Notes under the pieces: model-generated | What the model was told of the DNA's origin: nothing | What the model saw: the letters and a program-made list of their open reading frames with translations, nothing else | The model's database searches: none | Assembly (NCBI GenBank): GCA_041615815.1 | Contig: JBFJCP010000011.1 | Span: 47,684 to 111,683, forward strand | Direction: 5' to 3' | Length of the DNA stretch: 64,000 bases | Source: Gemmatimonadales bacterium | Lineage (GTDB): Bacteria > Gemmatimonadota > Gemmatimonadetes > Gemmatimonadales > GWC2-71-9 | Program-made: the position numbers and the translations under genes | Part shown: positions 12,154-64,000 of the stretch, one piece after another | Layout of the letters: the number at the start of each line of letters is the position of its first letter | Position numbering within the stretch: the stretch's first letter is position 1

Positions 12154-12229
12154 GCGGGGTGGGCAGCCGGGAGCCAGGAGCGGTGACCGATGAATCCCGC
12201 TTCCGGCTCCCCACTCCCCGCTCCCCGCT
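12154..12229. repeat. Inverted array of 7-mer tandem units straddling the thrB start
   Basis: Left units gggcagcc-gggagcc-aggagcg; right units cgcttcc-ggctccc-cactccc-cgctccc; the ATG at 12190 lies in the loop. Confidence 0.7.
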
Positions 12230-13086
12230 TTCACGTCCGCGTCCCGGCCTCCACGTCCAACCTCGGCGCCGGGTTCGACTGCCTCGGCCTGGCGTTGGAT
12301 CTATGGTTAGACGCCCGAGTCGTGCCTGGGGGCGGACCACCGGTCTACCGAGCCGCGCTCGCCGAATTGGCACCAGAGTCGGACATTGTCACCGGTCTCA
12401 TCCGTGATCACCTTCCCACCGATCACCACCTCGAGCTGACATCGGACATTCCAGTCGGACGCGGGCTCGGCTCGTCGGCCGCCGCGATCGTTGCCGGAAT
12501 TGCACTCAAACATCTCTTGGAGGGCCAGCACGTGGATGAGGATCGCCTGTTCGAAGAGGCCAACACCCTCGAGGGACACCCCGATAACGTCGGACCGGCC
12601 GTCTACGGCGGGCTCGTCTGGTACACAAATCGGCCCAACCCGCTCACCATCCACCCGAGCCTCGCCATCGCGCTCGCGATTCCTCGGATCGCCGTCGACA
12701 CGAAGCAGGCGCGGGCGATGCTTCCCAAAGCCGTGAGTCGAGAGATCGCAGTTCGACAGGCCCGTGGTGCCGGTGCGTTGGTCCAGGGCTTGGTCACCGC
12801 CGATCCAGCGCTCATCGCTTTTGGCATGCAGGATCAGTTGGCGGTTCCCCACCGCCGCAAGCTCATACCCGGCTTCGACGCCGCGGTCGCGGCAGGTGAA
12901 GGGGCGGGAGCACACGGCGTGACCATTTCGGGTGCCGGCTCTACCGCGGTGGCGGTATGCCCCAACGCCCGTGCACGACCCGTGGCCGCCGCCATGGCCG
13001 CCGCGCTCACGAGCGCCGGCAACGATGCCCGTGCTCACCTTCCTCAGGTGTGTCCCACGGGATACGAGATCGCCACCACCCGCTGA
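12190..13086 (+). CDS. thrB: Homoserine kinase
   Basis: VRVPASTSNLGAGFDCLGLAL; IPVGRGLGSSAAA (GHMP motif); EGHPDNV; ISGAGST. Confidence 0.92.
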   Translation: MNPASGSPLPAPRFHVRVPASTSNLGAGFDCLGLALDLWLDARVVPGGGPPVYRAALAELAPESDIVTGLIRDHLPTDHHLELTSDIPVGRGLGSSAAAIVAGIALKHLLEGQHVDEDRLFEEANTLEGHPDNVGPAVYGGLVWYTNRPNPLTIHPSLAIALAIPRIAVDTKQARAMLPKAVSREIAVRQARGAGALVQGLVTADPALIAFGMQDQLAVPHRRKLIPGFDAAVAAGEGAGAHGVTISGAGSTAVAVCPNARARPVAAAMAAALTSAGNDARAHLPQVCPTGYEIATTR

Positions 13087-13167
13087 GCACCATGGCGAAT
13101 CCACTCACATGCTCCTGACAAAGCTCGAACACGCCTCGGATCGTCAGCCGGCCTCCGAGGATTAGTT

Positions 13168-14193
13168 TTGCACCTGTCATCGCGGGAGAGCCGATTGCAC
13201 CGAACCCTTCTCGCCCTCGTGGCGTTCGCAACGGTCCTCGGCTGCCGCCAGGATGAGCGTTCGGCGTCCACCACCCAACACGAGGACGGCGATCGTGCGA
13301 CCGTGGAGACCACCCCTTCCCCCCGAAGCGGCTTTGCACTCGCCTACAACGCACAGCGTGGTCGGCTGGTGTTGTTTGGGGGATCCGACTCCGCGAACCA
13401 ACGTCTTGGCGACACGTGGGAGTGGGACGGGCGGCGATGGTCTCAACGGGAGGTGCCCGGGCCAGACCCACGCAGCGACGCACAGATGACGTACGACAGT
13501 CGGCGGCATCGCGTCGTACTCTTCGGCGGGCTCACACCCGATGGCCGAATGGGCGATACGTGGGAGTATGATGGCTCTGCCTGGGCCCAAGTCGCGCACA
13601 GCGGCCCCAAGCCGCGCAACCTTGGCGCGATGGCGTTTGACGAGCAGCGCGGGCGCTCCGTGCTCTTTGGAGGCACCGGCCCGCAGCGGGAGCGTCTCGG
13701 TGGCACGTGGGAATGGGATGGCGAGCACTGGTCGCAGCAAAGCGATTCCGGCCCAGAGCCACGGGGCGCACACGCCATGGCATACCACGCGACCCGGGCC
13801 GCCGTCATGCTGTTCGGCGGCTACGACGGGAGTGCCACCCGTAAGGACTTGTGGGCGTGGGACGGGACGGCGTGGACGGCGGTGATGGGAGCCGATGCGC
13901 CGGTGCGGCTGCACCACGCTCTCGGCTATGACGCCGCCCGTGACCGGCTCGTGGTGTTCGGGGGGTTCGACGACGCGGGGCGGGTGGGTGATACGTGGGA
14001 ATGGGATGGCGTGCGCTGGACGCAAGCTTCCAAGGATGGCCCACCGGCGCGGGCCGAGCATGATGGAGTGTTCGTCCCGGGTATGGGACTTCTCGTGTTC
14101 GGTGGGGTCGTTGGTCAGGGAATGGCGCTTGCCGAGCGCGTCAAGGTGGCAGACCTCTGGTTGTGGAATGGCATGACCTGGGAGAAGCGATAG
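13168..14193 (+). CDS. Kelch-repeat beta-propeller lipoprotein
   Basis: About six repeats of YDxxRxRxVLFGG...DTWEWDG; lipobox VLGC; TTG start. Confidence 0.85.
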   Translation: MHLSSRESRLHRTLLALVAFATVLGCRQDERSASTTQHEDGDRATVETTPSPRSGFALAYNAQRGRLVLFGGSDSANQRLGDTWEWDGRRWSQREVPGPDPRSDAQMTYDSRRHRVVLFGGLTPDGRMGDTWEYDGSAWAQVAHSGPKPRNLGAMAFDEQRGRSVLFGGTGPQRERLGGTWEWDGEHWSQQSDSGPEPRGAHAMAYHATRAAVMLFGGYDGSATRKDLWAWDGTAWTAVMGADAPVRLHHALGYDAARDRLVVFGGFDDAGRVGDTWEWDGVRWTQASKDGPPARAEHDGVFVPGMGLLVFGGVVGQGMALAERVKVADLWLWNGMTWEKR

Positions 14194-14217
14194 CCTCCGA
14201 TACGTCCCTTCCGGCCG

Positions 14218-14745
14218 CTACTGCCCTCTTTGCCTCCCATTCAACCACTCCAACCTCGCGCCGATCTGCTTGGCGTGATGCCGGCAATGCACGTAATGAA
14301 AACGCACCCATTCGGGGAGATTGAGGTCCCCCACGATGGGGTGCCGCACGAACCGTTCGAGCTGGCGACTCTCAGGCCATGTCTCGGACAGGACCGCCAG
14401 ACGTTCTACTCCCATCCGGAACTGGGCCATCACCTGTTCGGGATCTGGCTCCTCATGGGGCTTGACGCGCTCGGGGGATTGAGCCCCGCTGGGGATCTTG
14501 CCGACTCCTAGCAACAAGTGACGGAGAATCGTCTGGTGCGGGGTTGCGCGCCGCTTCATGAGCGGCTTGTCCGCCCGTTGCTCGAACGCGGTGGCGACGA
14601 GATCGACGCCCATGGCAAGGTGCTGGAGAATTTGACAGACACTCCACTTTCCGTTGGGGGCCCGATGCCAGTCGGCTCCGGTCACCCCGTTCAGGGGCTC
14701 CAACACCAACGTGTCCAGACGCTCCAACTGATGACGTACTTTCAT
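14218..14745 (-). CDS. DinB family protein
   Basis: WSVCQILQHL, HPIVGDLNLPEW and HCRHHAKQI motifs; start overlaps the ridA-like stop. Confidence 0.85.
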   Translation of the reverse strand: MKVRHQLERLDTLVLEPLNGVTGADWHRAPNGKWSVCQILQHLAMGVDLVATAFEQRADKPLMKRRATPHQTILRHLLLGVGKIPSGAQSPERVKPHEEPDPEQVMAQFRMGVERLAVLSETWPESRQLERFVRHPIVGDLNLPEWVRFHYVHCRHHAKQIGARLEWLNGRQRGQ

Positions 14746-15188
14746 GGGGCACCACCTGTCATCGCGATGCATTCGATTTCGACCCGAGCGTCGAGAGCGA
14801 GGCCGCTCCCCGCTACCGTCGAGCGGGCCGGTGGATCCTTCATAAAGAACGTTCGATACACATCGTTCATGGCGGTGAATTCACCGATGTCTCGCAGGAA
14901 CACCGTACACTTGACTACCCGGTCCATAGAACTCCCCATTGCCTCCAACGCGGCCTTGATGTTCTCGAGCGTCTGACGCGTCTCCGGACCAATCCCTCCC
15001 GGAATGAGCTCCACCGTCCCCGGCAGCCTTCCTATCTCACCGGAGAGGAACAAGAGGTTACCAACACGCACCGCCGACGAAAACGGGAGCCCTGCAGGAG
15101 CACCGGGAAGCTGAATGACTTCCTTCTCTTGAGCGTGTAGCGGTCCGGCAATCATCAACACGAATAGGATCCTCAGGAATCTCGGCAT
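14742..15188 (-). CDS. RidA/YjgF/UK114 family protein with a predicted signal peptide
   Basis: PFSSAVRVGNLLFLSG, VVKCTVFL, MNDVY, PPARST and VEIE motifs. Confidence 0.9.
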   Translation of the reverse strand: MPRFLRILFVLMIAGPLHAQEKEVIQLPGAPAGLPFSSAVRVGNLLFLSGEIGRLPGTVELIPGGIGPETRQTLENIKAALEAMGSSMDRVVKCTVFLRDIGEFTAMNDVYRTFFMKDPPARSTVAGSGLALDARVEIECIAMTGGAP

Positions 15189-15336
15189 GTCTGTCTCACG
15201 GGTTCGACGGGTTTTCGGATCGGCGTCTCGTTTGCTTGGTCTTGCCTCATTCGCTACCCATGCTGCATCTACCAGCCCTGTATTCGGCAATCGGCACTCT
15301 CGTGGGTGCCCGTCCGCGCTTCACCTCTCAGCCTCG

Positions 15337-15591
15337 CTACATCTGTGCATCATCGATCGCCTTTACGATCGCATCGAAGAGCGCGGACTTGGGAGGCATG
15401 GCGCCCGTCTTGTCACGATGGATGTACCACTGGCACATCTCCGCCATCGCCATCGCCTCATCGTCGGAGAGGGTGACCGAGTACCTGTCGGCGTCCTTTC
15501 GGGCATGGTCCACGCGTCGCCGGAGATTGTCGGGGATTTCCGGTGTGTTGCGGAGGGCGTCGAGCATCTCGGTGGTCATCTGCACTTCCAT
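15337..15591 (-). CDS. Small hypothetical protein (84 aa)
   Basis: GAGGAG SD; protein-like composition (MEVQMTTEMLDALRNTPEIP...CQWYI...). Confidence 0.7.
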   Translation of the reverse strand: MEVQMTTEMLDALRNTPEIPDNLRRRVDHARKDADRYSVTLSDDEAMAMAEMCQWYIHRDKTGAMPPKSALFDAIVKAIDDAQM

Positions 15592-15610
15592 GCGTAGCAA
15601 CTCCTCTTGC

Positions 15611-16096
15611 TCATCGCTCCATCGAGCCCGTGACGGCGATTTTCCACCCTTGCCGCGTCCTGACGAACACCCGCTCCGAGATCCCCCTAGTCGTGTCTCC
15701 TTCGAGCACCGCGATGTACTCGAACGCCGCCCAAACGACACCTGGCGCTATCCAGACCAGTGTGGGATCGCCGGCAATCAGCGTGTCCGGCCAGTCCGCG
15801 CTCGCTCTACGCGCTTCGGCAAACAGCAGATAGCCCCGGCGAATCCCTTCCGCGGTGGCGACCGCGAGGTCCGGCGAGTCCACGTAGTGCGCAAGATAGG
15901 TTTCCGCATCACGCTGATGAATCGCCCCCAAGTTGCTTTCCAGAACCGCTGCCGCACCCGTCAGATCCTGCGCCCGCATGGCTTCGAGATTCGGACGGTT
16001 GCACGCCGCGGACACCAAGATCATGCCCATCGCGACACCGAATCGCCAGTGGGTGAGGGACGCCAGCCTCGTCCCGGAAACGGCCACGCCGCTCAA
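15611..16096 (-). CDS. NTF2/SnoaL-like (DUF4440-type) lipoprotein
   Basis: Lipobox SAAC; C-terminal RVFVRTRQGWKI. Start uncertain: TTG 16096 overlapping the upstream stop, or ATG 16030. Confidence 0.7.
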   Translation of the reverse strand: MSGVAVSGTRLASLTHWRFGVAMGMILVSAACNRPNLEAMRAQDLTGAAAVLESNLGAIHQRDAETYLAHYVDSPDLAVATAEGIRRGYLLFAEARRASADWPDTLIAGDPTLVWIAPGVVWAAFEYIAVLEGDTTRGISERVFVRTRQGWKIAVTGSMER

Positions 16097-17397
16097 TGCC
16101 GAGCCGTGGGAGCATCCCATGAGGGGTCGATTCCCCAGGCGTCGAGCATCTCGATTTGCGCGTTGCTCGGTGCTCGTTCTTGTTCGAGGCGCGCCGCCAC
16201 CGCTTCGACGTCGCGCATGACCCGAAGGGCATTGAGCCCGATCACCTTCTTGGCATCCTCGTCGCTCCATCCTCGGCGGAGCAGCTCGGCGATGAGCGCC
16301 GGAAAAGTCGAGACGTCCTCGAGTCCGATCGGCGGGACGTCAATGCCGTCGAGATCAGACCCCAGACCCACATGATCGACACCCGCTACGTCCCGGACGT
16401 GTTCGATGAGATCGGCCACCACTTTGATATCGGGACGCGGCATGGGGTGCGTTCTCGTCCAGGCTCGGACAGAATCTTGGGCGGCGACACTGTCACCCGT
16501 CGTTTCGAACACGCGCGTACGGAGGGCATTTCGCTCGAGTCCCCATTGCCGCGCTGGCTCGTGAATGAAGGAGGCAACGTAGTTCACCATCATGATGCCG
16601 CCATTATCCCGCAGAGCGCGGGTGACGTCGTCGGGTACGTTACGTTTGTGCGGCGTGAGGACGCGGGGCGATGAATGGGAGAAGATGACGGGGGCTTCGG
16701 TCACCCCGAGGACGTCCCACATGGTCGAATCCGAAACGTGCGAGATGTCGACGAGCATGCCGAGACGATTCATCTCCCGTACGACCTCTTCTCCAAAAGC
16801 CGTGAGGCCGCCGTGCACGAGCGTGTCGGTGGACGCGTCCGCCCAGTCCGTATTTCGAGAGTGGGTGAGCGTGAGATACCGGATGCCGAGACGGTGGAAG
16901 CCACGGAGGAGGGCAAGCGAGTTCTCGATCATGTGTCCGCCCTCGAGCCCGAGGAGCGATGCCACTTTCCCGGACCGGTGGATCCGCGTGATGTCGTCTG
17001 CCGTCAACGCTATCTCGAAGGCCTGGGGATAACGGGCCACCATACGGTACACGACATCCGTCTGCTCCATGCCGGCGCGAGCGGCGTTGTGCTTGTCGAA
17101 CGCGACCGGCGTGTAGATGGACCAGAACTGGCCTCCCACCAACCCGTCACGAAGCCGCGGAATGTCGGTCATGATTTGAGGCTGTGGGCGCGAGATATCC
17201 AGCGAATCGAAGCTCAGTCCATAATTGACCCGGAGCTCCCACGGCAGATCGTTGTGCCCGTCGATCAGCGGCACCTCGCGCATGAGGGCGCGAGCGCGCT
17301 CGAGATACGGATCACCGGCTTGGGCTGACGCACTGCAGCCGGCTACGGAAACGGTGAACGCCCACACCAACGCGATGACGAGAGTTGGACGAGTCAT
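16093..17397 (-). CDS. Membrane (renal-type, M19) dipeptidase, lipoprotein
   Basis: IDGHNDLPW, GGQFWS, LEGGH, LTLTH, DISHVS, FSHS and HVGLGSDLDG motifs. Confidence 0.93.
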   Translation of the reverse strand: MTRPTLVIALVWAFTVSVAGCSASAQAGDPYLERARALMREVPLIDGHNDLPWELRVNYGLSFDSLDISRPQPQIMTDIPRLRDGLVGGQFWSIYTPVAFDKHNAARAGMEQTDVVYRMVARYPQAFEIALTADDITRIHRSGKVASLLGLEGGHMIENSLALLRGFHRLGIRYLTLTHSRNTDWADASTDTLVHGGLTAFGEEVVREMNRLGMLVDISHVSDSTMWDVLGVTEAPVIFSHSSPRVLTPHKRNVPDDVTRALRDNGGIMMVNYVASFIHEPARQWGLERNALRTRVFETTGDSVAAQDSVRAWTRTHPMPRPDIKVVADLIEHVRDVAGVDHVGLGSDLDGIDVPPIGLEDVSTFPALIAELLRRGWSDEDAKKVIGLNALRVMRDVEAVAARLEQERAPSNAQIEMLDAWGIDPSWDAPTARH

Positions 17398-17627
17398 GAG
17401 CCTCCTTCTTCGCTGCGAGTCTCACCCAAATCGGGGGTGTAGCCGCTGCACTGCAGGACCGGCAACCGGGGGTACTTCGCAAATCGCCGATCGAGCTCGG
17501 ATCGCTTGCAGTACCAGAATGTCGAGCCACGGTTGTTTCGTATCATCCGACGGTACCGGCAAGTTGCGCATAGTCCTGCCCGGGTCTCGTCGTCAGTCGT
17601 GGTTTGGAGTCGCATCCGTTCCTGCAC
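17394..17627 (-). CDS. Small four-cysteine hypothetical protein
   Basis: GLCATCRY...GSTFWYCKRS...KYPRLPVLQCSGY; ATGA-coupled to the dipeptidase. Alternative start at 17615. Confidence 0.75.
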   Translation of the reverse strand: MQERMRLQTTTDDETRAGLCATCRYRRMIRNNRGSTFWYCKRSELDRRFAKYPRLPVLQCSGYTPDLGETRSEEGGS

Positions 17628-17629
17628 AC

Positions 17630-17642
17630 GGTTAAATTAACC
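17630..17642. promoter_or_regulatory. Symmetric AT-rich element, candidate bidirectional -10 box
   Basis: GGTTAA-A-TTAACC in a 19-bp divergent gap; TAAATT on + and TAATTT on -. Confidence 0.55.
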
Positions 17643-17646
17643 CGTC

Positions 17647-17898
17647 ATGAGCGACGTCAACTGCGTACGCTGTGGGCAACCCGGCGCAAGATTGGCCGCA
17701 CCACCCCTTCCGAACGAGCTCGGCGGACGGATCTACGACTCGATCTGTCAGCGGTGTTGGGGCGAGTGGCTGCAGCATCAGACCGCGATGATCAACCACT
17801 ATGGCCTCGATCTGCGAGAGGCTGAGGCCCGGAAGTTCCTGACCGAACAGACGGAGCAGTATCTCTTTGGCCAACCGAAAGCCCCCTCCTCGGGCTAA
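17647..17898 (+). CDS. yggX: Fe(II)-trafficking / oxidative damage protection protein (YggX family)
   Basis: VNC...PPLPNELGGRIYDSICQRCWGEWLQHQTAMINHYGL...ARKFL...YLF matches the YggX pattern. Confidence 0.88.
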   Translation: MSDVNCVRCGQPGARLAAPPLPNELGGRIYDSICQRCWGEWLQHQTAMINHYGLDLREAEARKFLTEQTEQYLFGQPKAPSSG

Positions 17899-18406
17899 GG
17901 CCCACGTCGGCCTCGTCGTGAATGGCGAGCCGACGGAGGTTTCGTTCGCCCCCCACAAAACGCTCCTCGAAGTTCTTCGAGAAGATCTTGACCTCACCGG
18001 CACGAAGCATGGGTGCGAGCTTGGTGAATGCGGCACCTGCGCGGTCTTGGTGGACGGGCAACCGGTGCTCTCGTGCCTCGTGTTGGGGCTGGCCTGCGAG
18101 GGCCACGAAGTCCGTACCGTCGAGGGGATGCGGGATGGACCAGACCTCCATCCATTGCAGCAGGCTTTCGCGGAACTCGGTGCTGCCCAATGTGGCTACT
18201 GCACACCGGGGTTCCTGCTGACCGCCGAAGCGCTACTGCGCCACAACCCATCGCCTTCCCGAGAAGAGATCAAGCACGCGCTCGCTGGAAATCTCTGCCG
18301 CTGCACCGGATACATCAAAATCTACGAGGCGGTGGAGCTGGCCGCTGCCCGCATTCGCGGCGAGCACGCCGAGCCAGCGCGAGAGGCCGTGTATGGACGG
18401 GAGTAA
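17867..18406 (+). CDS. 2x[2Fe-2S] subunit of a xanthine-oxidase-family molybdoenzyme (HcrC-like)
   Basis: GTKHGCELGECGTCAV...SC; QCGYCTPG; NLCRCTGY. Confidence 0.93.
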   Translation: MANRKPPPRAKAHVGLVVNGEPTEVSFAPHKTLLEVLREDLDLTGTKHGCELGECGTCAVLVDGQPVLSCLVLGLACEGHEVRTVEGMRDGPDLHPLQQAFAELGAAQCGYCTPGFLLTAEALLRHNPSPSREEIKHALAGNLCRCTGYIKIYEAVELAAARIRGEHAEPAREAVYGRE

Positions 18407-20933
18407 GGGTCGGAAGGACGGAAAGTTGGCAGGGAGGAAGGGTTCCGACCAACCTTCCCGCGAGGCCGGTTTTCGCGTCGTCGGCACGCCCCGCTGGAAG
18501 GTCGATGCCGCGGCCAAGGTCACCGGTGAAACCCTGTTTGCCGACGACCTCTTCCTTCCCCGGATGCTCTACGCACGAATCCTCCGGAGCACAGAGCCGC
18601 ACGCGCGGATTCGATCCGTCGATACGTCGCGGGCCGAGGCCATCCCCGGGGTGAAGGCCGTCCTCACCGGGGCGGCGCTGCCCATACCGTTTGGCATTCT
18701 TCCCGTGAGCCAAGACGAGCATGCGCTCGTACCAGACAAGGTCCGCTTCGTTGGTGATCCCGTGGCCGCTGTCGCCGCGATCAGCGAAGAGATCGCCACG
18801 TCTGCGGTGGACGCCATTCACGTCGAGTACGAGCCTCTCGATACCATCGGCTCCATCGAGGAGGCCGTGGACACGATCGAGCCGCGAATCCACGATTACG
18901 GCCCGCTCGGCAATTTCCACAAGCTCATCGACCTCGAATTCGGGGACGTGGACGAAGCCCTGGCCGCCGCGGAGCATGTCCGCGAGGATCTGTACTTCTA
19001 CGAGGGCAACACGCACCTCGCCATGGAGCAGCACGCTGCCCTCGCCGAGTGGTCGGCGGACGAGAAGCTCACGCTGTGGAGCGCCACCCAGACACCGCAC
19101 TATGTGCATCGGGCGCTGTCGAAGGTACTGGCGATCCCGGCGGCGCATATCCGGGTGATCGCCTGCCCCAACGGCGGTGGCTTTGGCGGTAAGAGCGATC
19201 CATTCAGCCATGAGATCGTCGTGGCGAAGCTTGCCATGCTCACCGGCCGTCCCGTCAAGATCACACTGACCCGCGAGGAGGTGTTCTACTGCCATCGCGG
19301 GCGTCATCCCACCCTGATGTGGGTGAAGACCGGCGTGTCGCATGATGGCACGATCCGCGGGATGCATTTCCGCACCTTGTTGGACGGCGGCGCTTACGGG
19401 TCCTACGGTGTAGCAAGCACCTATTACACAGGTGCGTTGCAGACGGTCACCTACCAGGTAGACCGCTATCGCTTTCAGGGAGCGCGGGTTTTCACCAACA
19501 AGGCCCCGTGTGGCCCCAAGCGGGGCCACGGTACGCCGCAACCGCGGTTCGCTCTCGAGATCCACATGGACAAGATCGCAGAGGACCTCGGCATGGACCC
19601 CGCCGACCTTCGCCTTCAGCACCTGGCGCCAGCGGGCTCGCTCACCGCCAACTACCTGTCCATCGGATCCATGGGATTACGCGCGTGCATCCACAAAGTG
19701 ACCGAAGGCGCCCGTTGGAAGGATCGCTTCCGTAAGCTGCCGCACGGTAAGGGCATCGGACTCGCCTGCTCCAGCTACATCAGCGGTGCGGGCGTGGCGA
19801 TCTATTGGAACAACATGCCGCATTCCGGCGTGCAGCTGAAATGCGACCGCAGTGGGGGCGTGACAGTGTTCTGTGGTTCGACGGATATCGGGCAGGGTTC
19901 GGATTCGATCCTGGCATACATCGCTGCTGAAGTGCTGGGGATCGAACCGCTCGACATCCGAGTGGTCACGGCAGACACAGACCTGACTCCGGTAGACCTC
20001 GGGAGCTATTCGAGCCGGGTCACCCTCATGACGGGGAATGCAGCGCTCCAAGCCGCCGAACGTGCCCGCGACCTCATTGCCCGCGCGGCGTCCAAGAAGC
20101 TCAACGTGAGCCGCGACCGACTCGTATTCGCAGATCGCCGCGTGTTCGACGCTGAGGACCCGGAGCGCGGGTCGAGCTTTGCGGAAGCGGTGCAGCTGGC
20201 CGAAGCGGAGTTCGGAACCGTGGGGACCGTCGGATCCTACACGCCGCCCAACAGCGCTGGGCGGTACCGGGGCGCCGGAGTTGGCCCGTCACCGGCGTAC
20301 TCGTACAGCGCCGCCGTCGTGGAAGTGGAAGTGGATCCCGACACGGGGACCGTGCTCGTCCCCAAAATCTGGATCGCGCACGACGTGGGCCGCTCCATCA
20401 ATCCCATCAACGTGATAGGACAGGTAGAGGGCAGCGTGTATATGGGCCTCGGCGAAGCCCTCATGGAGGAGATGGCGTACCGTAGCAATCGGAACCTGGT
20501 GCACAAGATCCCGAGTCTCCTGGAATACAAGAGCCCCACGACGCTCGAGATGTCGGACGTGGTGACGTATCTCATCGAGGATCCCGATCCCAACGGCCCG
20601 TTTGGTGCCAAGGAGGTGGGTCAAGGTCCACTGCTTCCCATTCCTCCCGCGATCGCCAATGCGGTCTACGACGCCGTGGGTGTCCGTATCGACGAGGTTC
20701 CGATCACACCTGAGAAGGTACTGAAGGCCCTGAAGCAAAAAGCCGCTGGGCTCGAGCCACGGTTCGGACCAAAGAGCTTCCCCGTAATCCCGTGGCCCGA
20801 ACCGATTCGGATACCGCCCCCATGGGAAGGTGGTGATGGGAGAGCAGCAGCGGCAGAGGCAGCAGGTAGCGGAGGGAGAGCGGGTCGTGCTGCCGCCGCT
20901 GCCAGCCCATTCCTCGAGGAGCGCCAACACTAG
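18393..20933 (+). CDS. Molybdopterin-binding large subunit, 4-hydroxybenzoyl-CoA reductase alpha-like (HcrA-like)
   Basis: PFGILPVSQDE, GGGFGGK, CGPKRGHG, GQGS, GSYSSRVT and GAKEVGQG motifs. Confidence 0.88.
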   Translation: MDGSKGRKDGKLAGRKGSDQPSREAGFRVVGTPRWKVDAAAKVTGETLFADDLFLPRMLYARILRSTEPHARIRSVDTSRAEAIPGVKAVLTGAALPIPFGILPVSQDEHALVPDKVRFVGDPVAAVAAISEEIATSAVDAIHVEYEPLDTIGSIEEAVDTIEPRIHDYGPLGNFHKLIDLEFGDVDEALAAAEHVREDLYFYEGNTHLAMEQHAALAEWSADEKLTLWSATQTPHYVHRALSKVLAIPAAHIRVIACPNGGGFGGKSDPFSHEIVVAKLAMLTGRPVKITLTREEVFYCHRGRHPTLMWVKTGVSHDGTIRGMHFRTLLDGGAYGSYGVASTYYTGALQTVTYQVDRYRFQGARVFTNKAPCGPKRGHGTPQPRFALEIHMDKIAEDLGMDPADLRLQHLAPAGSLTANYLSIGSMGLRACIHKVTEGARWKDRFRKLPHGKGIGLACSSYISGAGVAIYWNNMPHSGVQLKCDRSGGVTVFCGSTDIGQGSDSILAYIAAEVLGIEPLDIRVVTADTDLTPVDLGSYSSRVTLMTGNAALQAAERARDLIARAASKKLNVSRDRLVFADRRVFDAEDPERGSSFAEAVQLAEAEFGTVGTVGSYTPPNSAGRYRGAGVGPSPAYSYSAAVVEVEVDPDTGTVLVPKIWIAHDVGRSINPINVIGQVEGSVYMGLGEALMEEMAYRSNRNLVHKIPSLLEYKSPTTLEMSDVVTYLIEDPDPNGPFGAKEVGQGPLLPIPPAIANAVYDAVGVRIDEVPITPEKVLKALKQKAAGLEPRFGPKSFPVIPWPEPIRIPPPWEGGDGRAAAAEAAGSGGRAGRAAAAASPFLEERQH
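18398..18460. repeat. 8-mer tandem-unit palindrome in the N-terminal extension of the Mo subunit
   Basis: cggga...ggtcggaa pairs with ttccgacc...tcccg; units tcggaagg-acggaaag-ttggcagg-gaggaagg. Confidence 0.6.
20844..20906. repeat. 9-mer GC-rich inverted repeat in the C-terminal tail of the Mo subunit
   Basis: gcagcggca-gaggcagca-ggtagcgga versus tgctgccgccgctgcc; encodes an Ala/Gly-rich tail. Confidence 0.45.
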
Positions 20934-20935
20934 CC

Positions 20936-21946
20936 ATGCTCCGCCTGCCGTCGTTCGACTACCTCCAGCCCAAAACGCTCCGGGAAGCGCTCAAGATGAA
21001 ACAGGAGGCCGGGGCGGTGGGGATGTATGTGGCCGGCGGCACCGATCTCTATCCCAACATGAAGCGCCGTCACCAGGAGCCAAAGGTGGTGATCTCGCTG
21101 GCGGCGATCCGTGCGCTGCGGCGCATCACCGGGGGAACGAGAGGGTCTGCACTCTCCGTGGGAGCGGGTGTCACGCTCACCGAGCTGCGCCGGCACCGGA
21201 GAATCCGTTCGCGTTACGCCGCCGTCGCCAAGTCGGCCGAGCTGATCAGCACACCCATCCTACAGAACATGGGCACGCTCGGTGGCAACCTCTGTCTCGA
21301 TACACGATGCAACTACTACAACCAGGGATACGAGTGGCGGAAGTCCATCAACTTTTGCATGAAGAAGGACGGCGACATTTGCTGGGTGGCTCCGTCGAGC
21401 CCGCGCTGCTGGGCAATATGCTCGAGCGACCTCGCGCCGGTGGCGGTGGCGATGGGGGCCGACTTCACCCTTGTGGGGCCACAAGGCGAACGGGTGGTAC
21501 CGGCCAGCCGGTTTTACCACGACGACGGCATCAATTACCTGACGAAGCAGCCTGACGAGATCCTCACCGACATGAGGCTACCCGCCACCAACGGGTGGGA
21601 TGCCGTGTATTGGAAACTGCGTCGGCGAGGCTCGTTCGATTTTCCGGTCCTTGGAGTCGCCGCGTGGATTCGATGGGAAGGTTCGCGCGCGGCCGAGGCA
21701 CGTATCGTCCTTGGCGCCGTGGCGAGCCATCCATTGGAGGTGGCCACTGCGGCGGATGCCATCGTGGGCACGGAACTGGACGATGACGCGATCGGGGCCG
21801 CAGCCGATGCTGCGTACAAGCCCTCGAAGCCAATGGACAACACGGACTTCGGTCTGGCGTGGCGAAAGCACATGACGCGGGAGTACGTAAAGGGCGCGTT
21901 GAAGGAACTGCGCGAACGTGTTCGTCGCGCCGGGATGGGCCGCTAG
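20936..21946 (+). CDS. FAD-binding subunit with a [4Fe-4S] insertion (HcrB-like)
   Basis: AGGTDL; GTLGGNLCLDTRCNYYNQ..WR....FCMKKDGDICWV......CWA Cys-rich insert; KLRRRGSFDFP. Confidence 0.9.
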   Translation: MLRLPSFDYLQPKTLREALKMKQEAGAVGMYVAGGTDLYPNMKRRHQEPKVVISLAAIRALRRITGGTRGSALSVGAGVTLTELRRHRRIRSRYAAVAKSAELISTPILQNMGTLGGNLCLDTRCNYYNQGYEWRKSINFCMKKDGDICWVAPSSPRCWAICSSDLAPVAVAMGADFTLVGPQGERVVPASRFYHDDGINYLTKQPDEILTDMRLPATNGWDAVYWKLRRRGSFDFPVLGVAAWIRWEGSRAAEARIVLGAVASHPLEVATAADAIVGTELDDDAIGAAADAAYKPSKPMDNTDFGLAWRKHMTREYVKGALKELRERVRRAGMGR

Positions 21947-22136
21947 GTTCTCGTGCCGAGATCGTGATCAATCTCGAAGAGACCTTCCTATTCAGATCCC
22001 AAAACGATGCCGCTGAGCGCATGATCACACCTCGCTGCGTCGTGGACTATGTCATAGGGAGGAATCCCAACCGGTCACCGCAGTCGCTGCCTCATCCAGG
22101 GAACCTTCTGCGGAGATTCACGCTCATATCGACTCG

Positions 22137-22499
22137 ATGTCCGTAGGGCAGATCGGTATCACCGCGGTGCATGCCTTTGTAGGGTGGGGGCTCTGCGGCG
22201 CAACGATGGGCATCGGCCTGGCCAAGACGTCGCTCGCGCGCGCGCTGCTCATTCACGCCGTGGCGGCTCCGGTCATTTTCGGCCTCATATCCTTCATCTA
22301 TTTCACCCATTTTGGCTACTCAACTCCGTTGGCAATCGCCGTTGGATTCGTTACGGTCGTGATTGCGATGGACTTTCTGGTCGTCGCCCTCCTGATACAG
22401 CGCGAACTCACCATGTTCCGGAGCGTCCTCGGAACCTGGCTTCCGTTTGCGTTGATCTTTGCATCCACCTACCTCGTCGGGCGTGTCACGCTGCCGTAG
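22137..22499 (+). CDS. Hypothetical membrane protein (4 TM)
   Basis: Four hydrophobic segments in a clean ORF. Confidence 0.75.
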   Translation: MSVGQIGITAVHAFVGWGLCGATMGIGLAKTSLARALLIHAVAAPVIFGLISFIYFTHFGYSTPLAIAVGFVTVVIAMDFLVVALLIQRELTMFRSVLGTWLPFALIFASTYLVGRVTLP

Positions 22500-22587
22500 G
22501 TACGAAACCGAGCAATCTGACTGCACCGAGTCTCGCCGCACACCCAGCCCCAAGCCAGATTATGGAGCCTCCATAAAGGAGACAGAG

Positions 22588-60061: not shown

Positions 60062-60907
60062 ATGGCCTACGCTACCCTCATTACGTCGGAGGAGCTGCAT
60101 TACCACGGGAACGATCCCGCGTGGGCGGTAGTCGATTGCCGTTTCTCGCTGGGCGATTCAGAGCTTGGCCGCCGAAGTTATCTCGAAGCACACGTTCCTG
60201 GTGCCGTCTATGCGCACCTCGACGAGGATCTCTCGGCGCCGGTGGTGCCCGGCAAGACAGGACGCCACCCACTGCCTTCGGTTGCCGCGTTCGCCCACGC
60301 CTTGAGCGGCTGGGGCATCGATCAGCATGTGCAAGTCGTCGCGTACGATGACAGCGGTGGCTCTATCGCTGCCCGACTGTGGTGGATGATTCGGTGGATG
60401 GGTCACGACATGGTGGCCGTGCTGGACGGGGGATTCCCTGCATGGCTCGCCCGCGGTTTCGAGACACGGTCCGGCGTGCAGTCCCGTCCCCGACGAGAAT
60501 TCGAGCCCAGGGTTCGGCCCGCCCTCGTGGCCGATGTCGGGGTCGTGGAGCGAATTCGGAGCGACGCAGCCCACCGTCTGATCGATGCGCGAGGAGCCGA
60601 CCGCTATCGCGGCGAGAACGAAACGATCGACCCGGTGGCAGGCCATATCCCGGGGGCCATCTCCCTTCCGTACGCCGACAACCTTCGAAAGGACGGGACG
60701 TTCCGGCCACCAGAAGAACTGCGAGCGCGCTTTGCCTCGCAGATCGGGGATGTCCCGCTGGACAAGGTGGTGTGCTACTGCGGGTCCGGCGTCACGGCGG
60801 CCCACGATCTCCTCGCCATGGCCCACGGGGGACTCGGAGACGCTCGGCTCTATCCGGGATCGTGGAGTGAATGGATCACGGATCCCGCTCGCCCGGTGGC
60901 ACCTTAG
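60062..60907 (+). CDS. Tandem-rhodanese sulfurtransferase (3-mercaptopyruvate sulfurtransferase, SseA-like)
   Basis: HVPGA, GRHPLP, ARLWW, GHIPGA, active-site CGSGVTA and YPGSWSEW motifs. Confidence 0.93.
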   Translation: MAYATLITSEELHYHGNDPAWAVVDCRFSLGDSELGRRSYLEAHVPGAVYAHLDEDLSAPVVPGKTGRHPLPSVAAFAHALSGWGIDQHVQVVAYDDSGGSIAARLWWMIRWMGHDMVAVLDGGFPAWLARGFETRSGVQSRPRREFEPRVRPALVADVGVVERIRSDAAHRLIDARGADRYRGENETIDPVAGHIPGAISLPYADNLRKDGTFRPPEELRARFASQIGDVPLDKVVCYCGSGVTAAHDLLAMAHGGLGDARLYPGSWSEWITDPARPVAP

Positions 60908-63012
60908 ATCCTCATCGTCTTCGAATACTCCGCGCCCACTCGCCCTCTGCGACACGCATCGGTCAGCATGAAGCCAGCGGAGTGTTTCGATTGAACGGTC
61001 AAGGCCTCTGCGAGCGCTGTCCCGCACGACTGTTGCACACACGCGAAGATGGCCCGTCGCGCCTCGACGGTGGCCGGGCCACCGGCAGGCGGCAGATCCG
61101 GAACGTCGTCCGGGATACCCGACAACGGTTTCGTCGACACCCGGCGCTTTGCCATCCCGTTCTGCCCGGTGGCGAGTTGCCACGTCATCGCCAGCATCTC
61201 GTCCAGCGGCCCCGCGGTATCGATGAGCCACCCTTGGGCTTCGGCCGCACGTACGGATTGTCCGCTCAGGAGCAGCCGGAGGAGCTTTGGCCACGCGTCC
61301 GGCCGCGCCTTTCGGAACGGCCAATGACAGCCCTCCATTCCCGGCACCACGGGCAGCGTGACTTCCGGGAATCCCAACGCCGCATCCTCGACCGCCACGA
61401 CATAGTCACAGTGGACAAAAAGCTCCAACATTCCACCCAAACACCGCTTGCCACCGATGAATCCCACGGAGGTTACGAAGTCATCCGCAAGGCGCCTGGC
61501 GGTTTGCGACCAGTCGTGTGAGACTCGAAAACCTGCGTCCTCGTTCTCCAGCGCCGGATAGAACTCGCTCGTGTCCGCCCCCACCAGTTGCGTGGCGAGG
61601 TGGAAGTCGTGCGAAACGATGACGCGATCAATTCCTTCAGCCCCGAGCCAATCGATGGCACGGTTCAGCTCTAAATCCACATCGCCGTTATACGCTTCGC
61701 GGCCCAGGGTGATGACGCCAACGTGACCATCGTGCTCGGCGTTCACGTAGAGCTGCTGCCATGGCGGTGCGTCGAGCTGCTCGAGAACCTCTGGATGCCA
61801 CGCGCTGGCGGCCGCCGATGGGTACAAGCGGTGATAGGCTTCGACCGTGCGCCGGACCGAATCGGCACCGCGTGTGCGCATGACCGCGAGCATCCCACGC
61901 CGAAACTGCGCGCAGAGCTCGCCGATAATGTTCATCTGCGCCGGATGACTGCGACGTTCGTGAAGCATGAGGCTGGTCATCTGGAACAGCGGCCCCAAGA
62001 TCCACGTGTCGAAATCGTTCTCGCCCGCATCGTTCAGGCTCCAGTCCACGAGTGGCCGAAAGTGATTGGGCGGATACCAGTCCCGTCCCGTGTCCTTGTG
62101 CTCCACCAACTCCTCTGCAGGTGCGAACAGACCGCCGTACTGTTCTCCGAGATGATGGAGACACGACCACGTCAAGAAATTCGCTCCCTTAGCTCCGATG
62201 GCGTCATGGGCTCGGAACGGATTTGGCCCCAGGAGCCGACGCACGTATTTGTCGATCTTCCAGTAGGGCATGTTGCGCGCATGGTGGTACCGGATGCCTG
62301 CGAGGGTCACACCACAAAACAACACGTCGAGCACGAACGACCAGTCGTCGCTCACCTCCATGGGGATGAGCCCGAGAGACCACAGGAGTTGCGTGACGTC
62401 GGTAGGCTCGGGTTCCACAATCTCGTAGACTTTGTTGATCTCGTGTGGGAACGCCGGATGGGCGATGCCGACACCCAACTCCGAACTGGGAAAGCCGGAC
62501 GTGACCGATCGAATGATGATATCGGGGATGGCCTCCCGAAACATCGTATAGTGGGCCTTCTTGATGTCGAGAAGCTCCGGTATCGCTTCCAACAGGAACC
62601 TGGGGCGTAGCTGCTGAAGCTCGCCGGGGAGGTGGTCCCCGTCATAGGTCAACCGCACGATGTTCGCCATGACCCGATCCGCCCGTTCCTTTCCGAAGGC
62701 CCGTACCAGACCGGGATACTGCGTTCCGATTCCATCAGGGGCACCGGGAAAGTCGAGCGCCACGATCGGGACGCCAAAGGGGGTGAGACGCGCACCCAGC
62801 TGCATCGTTTTTCCCGCCCCCACGATCCCATTCGCCCCCGTGACCACCAACGCGCCGCGCTCATGGGGCGGCCCAAAGATCCGCTCCACCAGATCACGGG
62901 CCTGGACCGGGAGGGTTCCGTTGCGAAAGACATTCAGGACCGTTCCGAGCCCGAGGGTCTCCAGCGTGGGTTGTCTGAGTGCCGTCGTCGTGACACTTGC
63001 GGTCGAAGTCAT
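60904..63012 (-). CDS. 3-hydroxyacyl-CoA dehydrogenase-like / enoyl-CoA hydratase fusion
   Basis: N-terminal Rossmann GANGIVG, LEAIPE..K, TSG and H; C-terminal crotonase CLGGMLEL and FPEV...PG; GAGGAG SD. Confidence 0.8.
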   Translation of the reverse strand: MTSTASVTTTALRQPTLETLGLGTVLNVFRNGTLPVQARDLVERIFGPPHERGALVVTGANGIVGAGKTMQLGARLTPFGVPIVALDFPGAPDGIGTQYPGLVRAFGKERADRVMANIVRLTYDGDHLPGELQQLRPRFLLEAIPELLDIKKAHYTMFREAIPDIIIRSVTSGFPSSELGVGIAHPAFPHEINKVYEIVEPEPTDVTQLLWSLGLIPMEVSDDWSFVLDVLFCGVTLAGIRYHHARNMPYWKIDKYVRRLLGPNPFRAHDAIGAKGANFLTWSCLHHLGEQYGGLFAPAEELVEHKDTGRDWYPPNHFRPLVDWSLNDAGENDFDTWILGPLFQMTSLMLHERRSHPAQMNIIGELCAQFRRGMLAVMRTRGADSVRRTVEAYHRLYPSAAASAWHPEVLEQLDAPPWQQLYVNAEHDGHVGVITLGREAYNGDVDLELNRAIDWLGAEGIDRVIVSHDFHLATQLVGADTSEFYPALENEDAGFRVSHDWSQTARRLADDFVTSVGFIGGKRCLGGMLELFVHCDYVVAVEDAALGFPEVTLPVVPGMEGCHWPFRKARPDAWPKLLRLLLSGQSVRAAEAQGWLIDTAGPLDEMLAMTWQLATGQNGMAKRRVSTKPLSGIPDDVPDLPPAGGPATVEARRAIFACVQQSCGTALAEALTVQSKHSAGFMLTDACRRGRVGAEYSKTMRI

Positions 63013-63022
63013 CGTCGTCTCC

Positions 63023-64000
63023 TCACACCACCTGCAGCACGGCTGCGATCCCAATGTCCCCTGCCGCACAACCGAACACGAGCACGTTTCCACCCCCCAA
63101 CGCCACCGCCTCCTCCAACGCCTCGATGATGATCCGCGTGAGCGTGGGCCCTTGCGGATGTCCCCAGACCAGCGAGCACCCGGTCTTGTTCATGCCCCGC
63201 CAATCGTAATCCAACATGCGGGCAAAGATCGCATCGTTCACTGCGAAAGGATTGTGGTTCTTCACGACCGCCATGTCGGCCATCGTCAGATCGAGGCGGC
63301 GTAAGAGTTTTTGGACGGCCAGGGCAGGCGCTTCTGGCATGAGGCTCGGATGGGCCCGCACCTCTGTCTTGCCCAGGATCCGGATATCGATTTCGGGCCG
63401 GGGACTCAGCTCGGCCACACGATCTTTCGTCGCGATCAGCAGGCAGGCCATGCCATCGGAGGCGTGCGTCTGGGTTCCCGACGTCACGCAGGTATCCAGC
63501 TCGCTCATGGACCCGAGGGCATCAGGCGTGACTGGGCGGATACCGAGGTCGTCGTCGATTCGGCCCAAGGGCCGCCCCTGCACGTTGAGCAAGTCCAGCG
63601 GCACGAGCACACGGTCCAAGAAGCCGTTGCTCTTGGCCTCGAAGTACTGCTGGTAGCGGAGATAGGTCAGCTCGTCCACTTCTTGGCGACTGAGCCGGTG
63701 CTTGCGGGCAGCGATCCCGGCCGTGGAGATCATGGCTTGCCCCGTCGCCGGATCGAACCCGAAATTGTCCCACACGTCTGCGAGGGGTACCGTGCGTTGG
63801 TGGGCCCGGCGCTCCGGGAAGACGCCGACGGGTGAGTCACTCGTTCGATCGAAAGTGAGCACCCCGACGACATCGTAGGAACCCGACTCGACTTCGCCAG
63901 CGCCCAGCAGAGTCGCCTGCAGCCCGGTGGCGCACGCCTGCTCCACGTGATACCCGGGGATCCGATGGCCAAGGCAGAATGCCACGAGTGGCGCATTCCA
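63023..64000 (-). CDS. Thiolase family protein (5' end beyond the right edge of the window)
   Basis: EQACATG, SDG, NHNPFAVND, SLVWGHPQGPT and GCAAG motifs; frame open to position 64000. Confidence 0.9.
   Translation of the reverse strand, partial: WNAPLVAFCLGHRIPGYHVEQACATGLQATLLGAGEVESGSYDVVGVLTFDRTSDSPVGVFPERRAHQRTVPLADVWDNFGFDPATGQAMISTAGIAARKHRLSRQEVDELTYLRYQQYFEAKSNGFLDRVLVPLDLLNVQGRPLGRIDDDLGIRPVTPDALGSMSELDTCVTSGTQTHASDGMACLLIATKDRVAELSPRPEIDIRILGKTEVRAHPSLMPEAPALAVQKLLRRLDLTMADMAVVKNHNPFAVNDAIFARMLDYDWRGMNKTGCSLVWGHPQGPTLTRIIIEALEEAVALGGGNVLVFGCAAGDIGIAAVLQVV

Follow-up and report, generated by a model that had tools for sequence, protein, structure and literature searches.

What chemistry is left to a xanthine-oxidase-family enzyme whose conserved active-site glutamate has become a glutamine? 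The question arises from an operon of a Gemmatimonadales bacterium (assembly GCA_041615815.1), read here in a window of 64,000 nucleotides, the whole stretch of DNA that was analysed (contig JBFJCP010000011.1, positions 47,684 to 111,683 of the forward strand). [quoted passage not shown] We find that the Gln characterises a clade of 4-HBCR relatives that is, judged by sequence, widespread in bacteria, and that the clade is associated with genes of benzoyl-CoA ring cleavage, a link more informative than that to yggX. The probability that the Gln enzyme acts like 4-HBCR, removing a ring hydroxyl from an aroyl-CoA, we put at roughly 0.5. The operon comprises the following features, in window coordinates.

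17647..17898, + strand: yggX, 83 amino acids (NF003817 88.6 bits, cut-off 74; PF04362)
17867..18406, + strand: gamma subunit with two [2Fe-2S] clusters, 179 amino acids (PF00111 and PF01799)
18393..20933, + strand: alpha (molybdopterin) subunit, HcrA-like, 846 amino acids
19173..19193, + strand: GGGFGGK cofactor loop, alpha 261-267, family-typical and common to the Glu-bearing sisters
19512..19532, + strand: GPKRGHG, alpha 374-380, with K376 for a Met of HcrA and R377 and H379 retained
20622..20624, + strand: CAA codon of Gln744, aligned with Glu726 of HcrA
20936..21946, + strand: beta (flavin adenine dinucleotide, FAD) subunit, HcrB-like, 336 amino acids (top PDB match 1rm6_B, E 4.4e-58)
21308..21409, + strand: [4Fe-4S] insert in beta, C125-x15-C141-x7-C149-x8-C158

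An enzyme built like 4-hydroxybenzoyl-CoA reductase

The subunit set of the xanthine oxidase family is complete, its molybdenum (Mo)-cofactor, FAD and double [2Fe-2S] components being recognised by Pfam and by the fold of alpha; absent is the family's conserved active-site Glu, replaced by Q744. For gamma, alpha and beta, the Hcr models score highest, yet all three subunits stay below the NCBIfam cut-offs (186 bits against 257.8 for TIGR03193, 811 against 994.55 for TIGR03194, and 285.8 against 404.55 for TIGR03195, respectively). The top PDB match of alpha in phmmer is HcrA of Thauera (1rm6_A, E 1.4e-180), and 1rm6 is also the best Foldseek match of its AlphaFold2 model (root-mean-square deviation, rmsd, 1.5 Å; target-normalised template modelling score 0.97), which has a predicted local distance difference test score of 90.4 and low confidence at both termini (residues 1-24 and 822-846). 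In beta, C125, C141, C149 and C158 each align with a Cys of HcrB, an assignment that concerns the ligands only, as read from sequence; the insert that holds them is missing from CutM in the alignment with beta. The Gln enzyme thus resembles 4-HBCR in architecture, and its cut-off scores, its place in the tree and its lack of Glu set it outside that enzyme.

Does Q744 occupy the catalytic position? The pairing of GAKEVGQG with GAKEASEG of 1rm6_A by phmmer places it on E726 of HcrA (PDB-chain numbering), as the earlier note had proposed, a position that we take to correspond to Glu1261 of xanthine oxidase. E741 pairs with the Glu in HcrA's own AKE; therefore the alternative register, with the Glu of AKE as the catalytic residue, does not apply. 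The HcrA-like character claimed for the rest of alpha is borne out by the retained RGHG His and GSYSSRVT. Three details of that first description need correction: GAKEVGQG sits about 100 residues upstream of the C-terminus of alpha, not at its end; the supposed extra Lys in GPKRGHG, K376, is a substitution without insertion; and GGGFGGK is no distinguishing mark, as the family typically has GG[GA]FGGK. A soil-run contig spanning the codon (X7) differs nearby only at 20621, synonymously, and none of the contigs compared has an alternative letter at 20622-20624. An active Glu-bearing paralogue as partner was rejected as well, the other xanthine-oxidase-family large subunits of the genome being merely ~24-34% identical to alpha.

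A clade of Gln-bearing relatives

Among close homologues, where a Glu would have spoken against the early reading, Gln is universal: Gln together with CGPKRGHG occurs in 120/120 nearest proteins, query included (the best 120 of 8000 scored), and in 80/80 GTDB loci (80 retained from 567). These counts, together with the contig comparison, led us to reject a sequencing error or private mutation. In samples of 201 genomes each of Gemmatimonadota and Acidobacteriota, an HcrA-like alpha gene is present in 99 Gemmatimonadota, which fall into three tiers by identity to the window's alpha: 57 genomes at ≥65%, 35 at ~50% and seven at 41-45%. The residue was read in 20 top-tier genomes in addition to that of the window (all Gln), in 13 of the 35 and in all seven (all Glu), and the remaining genomes were assigned to a tier from identity alone. 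Acidobacteriota yield matches in 66 genomes, 35 of them in the Gln tier; here, all 31 Gln-tier residues read are Gln, and all 19 read among the other 31 genomes are Glu. Further afield, the 150 best representatives of 50% clusters comprise 119 with Glu, eight with Gln, ten with other letters and 13 that do not span the site.

In a tree of 89 hand-picked rows (IQ-TREE quick search; Thauera HcrA is not a row), 31 Gln rows from Gemmatimonadota and Acidobacteriota form a single clade with a Shimodaira–Hasegawa-like approximate likelihood ratio (SH-aLRT) support of 99. This clade is nested in a 48-row PKRGHG clade, together with Glu-bearing rows and a further Gln row, P0128. P0144, which scores as true HcrA (1301.7 bits against 994.55), and P0156 lie outside the 48 rows, and alpha is thus not grouped with true HcrA. 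In a second tree, which masks the trait residue and leaves out six long rows, the Gln/Glu label needs three changes; the support of a 25-row Gln core is still 100, the value for the 31-row node not being listed in that tree. Monophyly, which the earlier note had put forward for checking, holds for the 31 main Gln rows and fails for P0128, P0160 and P0247, which stand apart. These three represent further, separate Glu-to-Gln changes; P0128 also has PKRGHG, and P0160 and P0247 are divergent, distant rows.

Lys376 was found in 31/31 Gln rows, 15/15 Glu sisters and 0/11 other Hcr-like rows. Since all Glu sisters have it, the Lys was gained before the Glu was lost, on this rooting. As markers of the Gln clade, Lys376 and GGGFGGK were both rejected, each being found in Glu sisters. 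Tree and residue counts together agree with the earlier proposal of a distinct 4-HBCR-like subfamily with Gln throughout and, probably, altered chemistry.

The active site around the exchange

What else has changed near the Mo site? Q233, K267, Y338, Y345, R377, H379, W472, S541-R542 and Q677 are each invariant in 31/31 rows of the Gln clade. Presumably, Q233 is the Gln facing the apical oxo ligand, and K267 (in GGGFGGK), R377 and the SSR element (S541-R542) have cofactor-site roles. Cofactor-site and channel positions are thus unchanged in the 31 clade rows, which argues that the Mo site is under selection. At 18 positions, the Gln clade has a fixed residue that sets it apart from both Glu groups; A341, S342, T346 and Q350, four of the 18, surround the channel tyrosine Y345. 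A compensating acidic residue was rejected, because none of the 18 is Asp or Glu.

Association with benzoyl-CoA ring cleavage

We scored a genome as having a sink if it held a BoxB-like match (E ≤1e-30) or a BcrB-like match (E ≤1e-40); the genome lists behind these counts were entered by hand from the outputs. In Gemmatimonadota, a sink is present in 54/57 Gln-tier genomes versus 7/102 genomes without an Hcr-like gene, and 43 of the 44 genomes with a short BoxB belong to the Gln tier. Leaving out one unpublished genome (G157) gives 53/56 and 42/43. The contrast persists within the window's order (53/55 Gln versus 4/76 genomes; 29/31 versus 3/30 genera). In family f2, Gln gene and sink occur in the same 5/38 genomes and in family f3 in the same 2/3, the alpha subunits of the two families falling into different sub-clades; in genus g9, one genome (G034) has both and another (G139) neither. 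A CoxL-like paralogue, used as a control, coincides with a sink in 11/23 genomes. Among Acidobacteriota, where the counts include the unpublished genome G229, a sink is found in 26/35 Gln-tier genomes versus 13/135, and in 23/31 genomes with Glu-type Hcr-like genes. The third Gemmatimonadota tier has a sink in 7/7 genomes. As a side observation, the enzymes of this tier (L093-L098) have Glu and a beta without the [4Fe-4S] insert, and they lie within bcr-like clusters that contain a second BcrB-like gene.

The genome of the window (G000) has two clusters that hold a sink-like gene. Contig C2 (~89-97 kb) carries an oah-dch-bcrC-bcrB-bcrA/D-had-like cluster, resembling class I benzoyl-CoA reductase. 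Seen by itself, this cluster (L121:4951-13005) is below all NCBIfam cut-offs and has close homologues in 36/201 Gemmatimonadota genomes. The cluster on contig C1 (~126-135 kb; L122:6381-15512) encodes a 370-residue short BoxB-like diiron protein along with TetR, three crotonases, an aldehyde dehydrogenase, a PcaF-like thiolase, a hydroxyacyl-CoA dehydrogenase and an amidohydrolase; BoxA was not found for this cluster. Linkage at the operon level occurs in Acidobacteriota: in L174-L179, six of the 20 wide Gln loci, the Gln genes come directly after those for crotonase, aldehyde dehydrogenase and thiolase, which are arranged as in the C1 cluster. Of the L174-type proteins tested, the two crotonases and the dehydrogenase have their best match in the C1 cluster, and the thiolase does not. 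At L190, Hcr-like genes of the Glu type share one cluster with a short BoxB.

A LeuA-like gene has a similar distribution. Counted in 80 hand-picked genomes of the 201, it is present in 41/42 Gln genomes, 6/6 Glu sisters and 4/32 others. It lies within bcr-like clusters in 3/11 wide loci from other genomes (L242-L244), beside Hcr-like genes in L170 and L181, and amid housekeeping genes in most others. It may offer a lead on substrate supply only. The LeuA/homocitrate-synthase-like gene, which tracks the PKRGHG clade, is divided over two contigs in this genome (C19:3-1229 and the end of C41); its company sometimes includes a LeuB-like gene, bcr genes and, as judged by eye, Ior-like genes. A thiolase gene and a neighbouring 750-residue gene at 60907-64000 of the window (- strand) have counterparts of 68-74% identity next to the LeuA-like/bcr cluster of L243.

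Proposed function and its alternatives

What, then, could be the role of this enzyme? The observed subunit set, cluster ligands, invariant cofactor and channel residues, clade, Gln and gene co-occurrence are consistent with the following scheme. Low-potential electrons would enter via [4Fe-4S] and pass through FAD and the two [2Fe-2S] clusters to Mo, the [4Fe-4S] entry point being the argument for inward flow. At Mo, the ring hydroxyl would be reductively removed from an aroyl-CoA, with 4-hydroxybenzoyl-CoA as first candidate, and the resulting benzoyl-CoA would pass to a Box-like epoxidase or Bcr-like reductase encoded elsewhere. As Gln cannot protonate a Mo-bound oxygen, the predicted proton donors are the invariant His379 and/or Lys376. 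Hydroxylation appears unlikely because the catalytic base is lost, and the near-exclusive co-occurrence with benzoyl-CoA-type ring-breakdown genes makes removal of a substituent from an aromatic CoA ester likely. 4-HBCR is believed to depend on a thioester that stands para to the hydroxyl to be removed (bioRxiv 10.1101/2025.01.17.632430); Glu has been proposed to donate the proton when nitrite is reduced (PMC10420851), and its part as base in oxidation is also treated in PMC4334109.

A wider picture, to which we assign somewhat less than an even chance, is that of a natural reductase of the xanthine oxidase family that is active without the Glu deemed indispensable there, having first acquired a Lys in the active site to donate the proton. 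It would catalyse the entry step of an undescribed route from hydroxy- or amino-aromatic CoA esters to benzoyl-CoA in abundant, mostly uncultured Gemmatimonadota and Acidobacteriota. Benzoyl-CoA would then go to the O2-dependent short BoxB or the O2-independent Bcr, and the LeuA-like synthase may supply esters from aromatic amino acids.

Several observations weigh against a 4-HBCR-like role. In oxidising members of the family, Glu serves as catalytic base, and its exchange for Ala inactivates the Desulfovibrio enzyme (PMC3624778); Ucd, the other known dehydroxylase in the family, retains Glu (E741; PMC11760930). A His of HcrA is replaced by S461 in alpha. All Bcr-like and BoxB-like proteins of this genome are below cut-offs, as is its best candidate for a benzoate-CoA ligase (241.8 bits against 375.25). 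A sink is present in just 5/35 Gemmatimonadota genomes of the Glu sister tier, and therefore kinship with 4-HBCR alone does not predict the role; 9/35 Acidobacteriota Gln genomes are without one. BoxB was found in none of the five L174-type genomes searched, four of which give a weak (24%) match. Finally, the genomes are related, so that the counts, which are descriptive and set beside one control gene, overstate the evidence.

The alternative that survives best keeps the place in the pathway and changes the leaving group, which would be amino (reductive deamination of 2- or 4-aminobenzoyl-CoA) or another substituent. We regard it as on the unlikely side. The co-occurrence data fit it equally well, and the 18 positions fixed only in the Gln clade, with four of them around Y345, are in its favour; so is Desulfatiglans anilini, in which 4-aminobenzoate induces Hcr-annotated proteins and reductive deamination has been proposed (PMC7500099). 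Against this, the genes that recur beside 120 loci, as grouped by clustering and partly annotated, include none recognisable as specific to aminobenzoate.

Could the link to aromatic-CoA genes instead be a lineage effect, the enzyme acting on something unrelated, for instance a heterocycle, an N-oxide or an aldehyde? This is improbable. The operon has no aromatic neighbours in this genome, and the LeuA-like gene, often amid housekeeping genes, co-occurs as tightly (41/42 versus 4/32), so that several genes share this distribution. However, Gln gene and sink agree inside three families and inside genus g9, the CoxL-like control does not track sinks, L174-L179 provide linkage at the operon level, and the LeuA-like gene itself occurs in bcr-like clusters or beside Hcr-like genes.

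Equally improbable is a silent Mo site, the complex serving as an electron relay in place of BoxA or of the ferredoxin-reducing system of Bcr. Loss of Glu ends catalysis in the oxidising enzyme cited above, and BoxA exceeds its cut-off in 0/73 BoxB-type genomes. BoxA is, however, equally absent from the 14 of these genomes that have no Hcr-like gene; BoxA and the Gln enzyme are therefore not complementary, and replacement of BoxA was rejected. Moreover, the Mo subunit keeps its cofactor motifs and invariant channel residues, and relatives retain moaA (94/95 in the family). In this genome moaA was not found, although it has moaC, moeA and xdhC as well as seven or more large subunits of the xanthine oxidase family; since 94/95 family members have moaA, its absence is likely an assembly gap, and a cofactor-free pseudo-enzyme was rejected on that ground. 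That the Gln is a private mutation, an error or a sign of decay, for which the missing moaA might be cited, has a negligible chance given its presence in every nearest protein and locus compared and the presence of moeA, moaC and xdhC.

yggX as an operon partner in one lineage

How does yggX relate to the enzyme? The overlap noticed at the outset is there: gamma starts with a TTG at 17867, inside yggX, and the two genes share 32 bases. Both the NF003817/PF04362 score and the N-terminal Cys identify the product as YggX. Its gene is likely the first of the operon in this lineage and likely co-transcribed with the Hcr-like genes there, without being required. No sigma-70 site was found at 17300-22500 by a promoter scan. 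Upstream lies one further gene of relevance:

16093..17397, - strand: M19 dipeptidase gene, divergent (PF01244), context

The other window genes around the operon do not belong to aromatic pathways according to profile searches. In relatives, genes like those at 12190-17397 of the window (homoserine-kinase-like, DinB, RidA, a small hypothetical and the M19 dipeptidase) accompany the yggX-linked form of the operon.

Among Gemmatimonadota, yggX occurs in 153/201 genomes, nearly always as a single copy. In the 57 Gln-tier genomes, it adjoins the operon in 16, lies elsewhere in 16 and gives no match in 25, adjacency having been judged by eye from coordinates; a few of the cases counted as elsewhere may lie at contig breaks. 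All 16 adjacent cases belong to the window's family, in which they span 12 genera. yggX adjoins 11/80 GTDB loci, of which 64 extend far enough upstream for a judgement, and is at no Acidobacteriota Gln locus read; synteny of the Gln clade with yggX, which the earlier note had put forward for checking, is thus not general. The M19 dipeptidase gene lies upstream of gamma in many relatives without yggX at the locus. As these keep dipeptidase and gamma with no yggX in between, yggX is not an obligate subunit, nor is it present and linked wherever the enzyme occurs. What remains of the proposed link is a partner conserved by overlap in one lineage (16/57); its predicted role as dedicated iron-sulfur support falls with the phylum-wide spread of the gene and the 25/57 Gln genomes without a detected copy. 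As read from sequence, yggX is a real, coupled operon partner in one lineage.

Whatever the substrate, a four-Cys YggX might still serve the enzyme as a dedicated helper, by supplying or repairing its [4Fe-4S] cluster or as a small electron donor; we consider this improbable. The embedded gamma start is conserved, a TTT-G inside yggX supplying the TTG in 16/17 adjacent loci (the exception has its own ATG), versus TTT at the matching spot in 3/19 non-adjacent yggX genes (after removal of a duplicate locus, and with one case that could not be scored). Adjacency across 12 genera of one family and a CxxC...CxxC arrangement (C6, C9, C34, C37) that could bind metal point the same way. In contrast, yggX is carried by 121/144 Gemmatimonadota genomes without the Gln enzyme and is elsewhere or undetected in most genomes with it, and no Acidobacteriota locus read has it. 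At least four Cys are present in 38/38 rows read, and four in 20/20 non-adjacent copies; we therefore rejected the four-Cys form as a special donor for the Gln enzyme. Viewed apart from the operon, the CxxC...CxxC form in Gemmatimonadota (window, L213-L232), seen in 38/38 rows whether adjacent or not and in contrast to the aligned solved homologues, is possibly a metal-binding variant of YggX.

Significance

The conserved Glu is treated as essential family-wide, and what it does when 4-HBCR reduces its substrate is a matter of debate. Taken with its Glu-bearing sisters, the large natural Gln clade provides a ready pair for testing the proton-donor residue, and the co-occurrence data name a pathway in which to seek the substrate of the Gln enzyme. 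JGI gives many Gln-clade proteins the name 4-hydroxybenzoyl-CoA reductase; claims of anaerobic phenol degradation from metagenomes of soil Gemmatimonadota and Acidobacteriota may therefore rest on an enzyme recognised by sequence alone. We found no paper on the Gln variant or the yggX link in a search that covered few subscription journals; two papers only count such 4-HBCR annotations (bioRxiv 10.1101/2025.11.25.690425; PMC12879404).

Comparison with known systems

Xanthine dehydrogenase, aerobic CO dehydrogenase and quinoline 2-oxidoreductase share fold and cofactor architecture with the Gln enzyme and differ in being oxidative and only 24-29% identical, the Glu of xanthine dehydrogenase acting as base; CutM, an FAD subunit, lacks the [4Fe-4S] insert of beta. 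The window's YggX aligns over its full length with solved homologues (PF04362; PDB 2MZY, 1T07, 1YHD, 1XS8) and exceeds the NF003817 cut-off; the two that were aligned lack C34 and C37, and 2MZY is also without C9 and has only the first Cys. Closer in chemistry to the role proposed here, the urolithin 9-dehydroxylase UcdCFO of Enterocloster belongs to the same family and works in the reductive direction, on a phenol in para position to an ester (PMC11760930; bioRxiv 10.1101/2025.01.17.632430), but keeps Glu and has no [4Fe-4S] loop (PMC11760930).

The Glu-bearing PKRGHG sisters (~50% identity), from other Gemmatimonadota families, Acidobacteriota and one Ignavibacteriales protein, share K376, K267, the [4Fe-4S] beta where read and the LeuA-like gene in the 6/6 genomes tested; they differ in keeping Glu and in their rarity of BoxB-like or BcrB-like genes (5/35 genomes). 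The closest known system for alpha and beta is HcrCAB of Thauera aromatica (PDB 1RM6/1SB3; TIGR03193-5), which has the same three subunits and the [4Fe-4S] insert. It differs in that all three window subunits score under the Hcr cut-offs and the Gln clade is separate from true HcrA (P0144); from HcrA to alpha, E726 becomes Q744, M357 becomes K376, GGGFGAR becomes GGGFGGK and a His becomes S461. In the alignment by fold, alpha is 41% identical to HcrA (rmsd 1.5 Å), and it keeps the RGHG His, Y338/Y345 and GSYSSRVT of HcrA.

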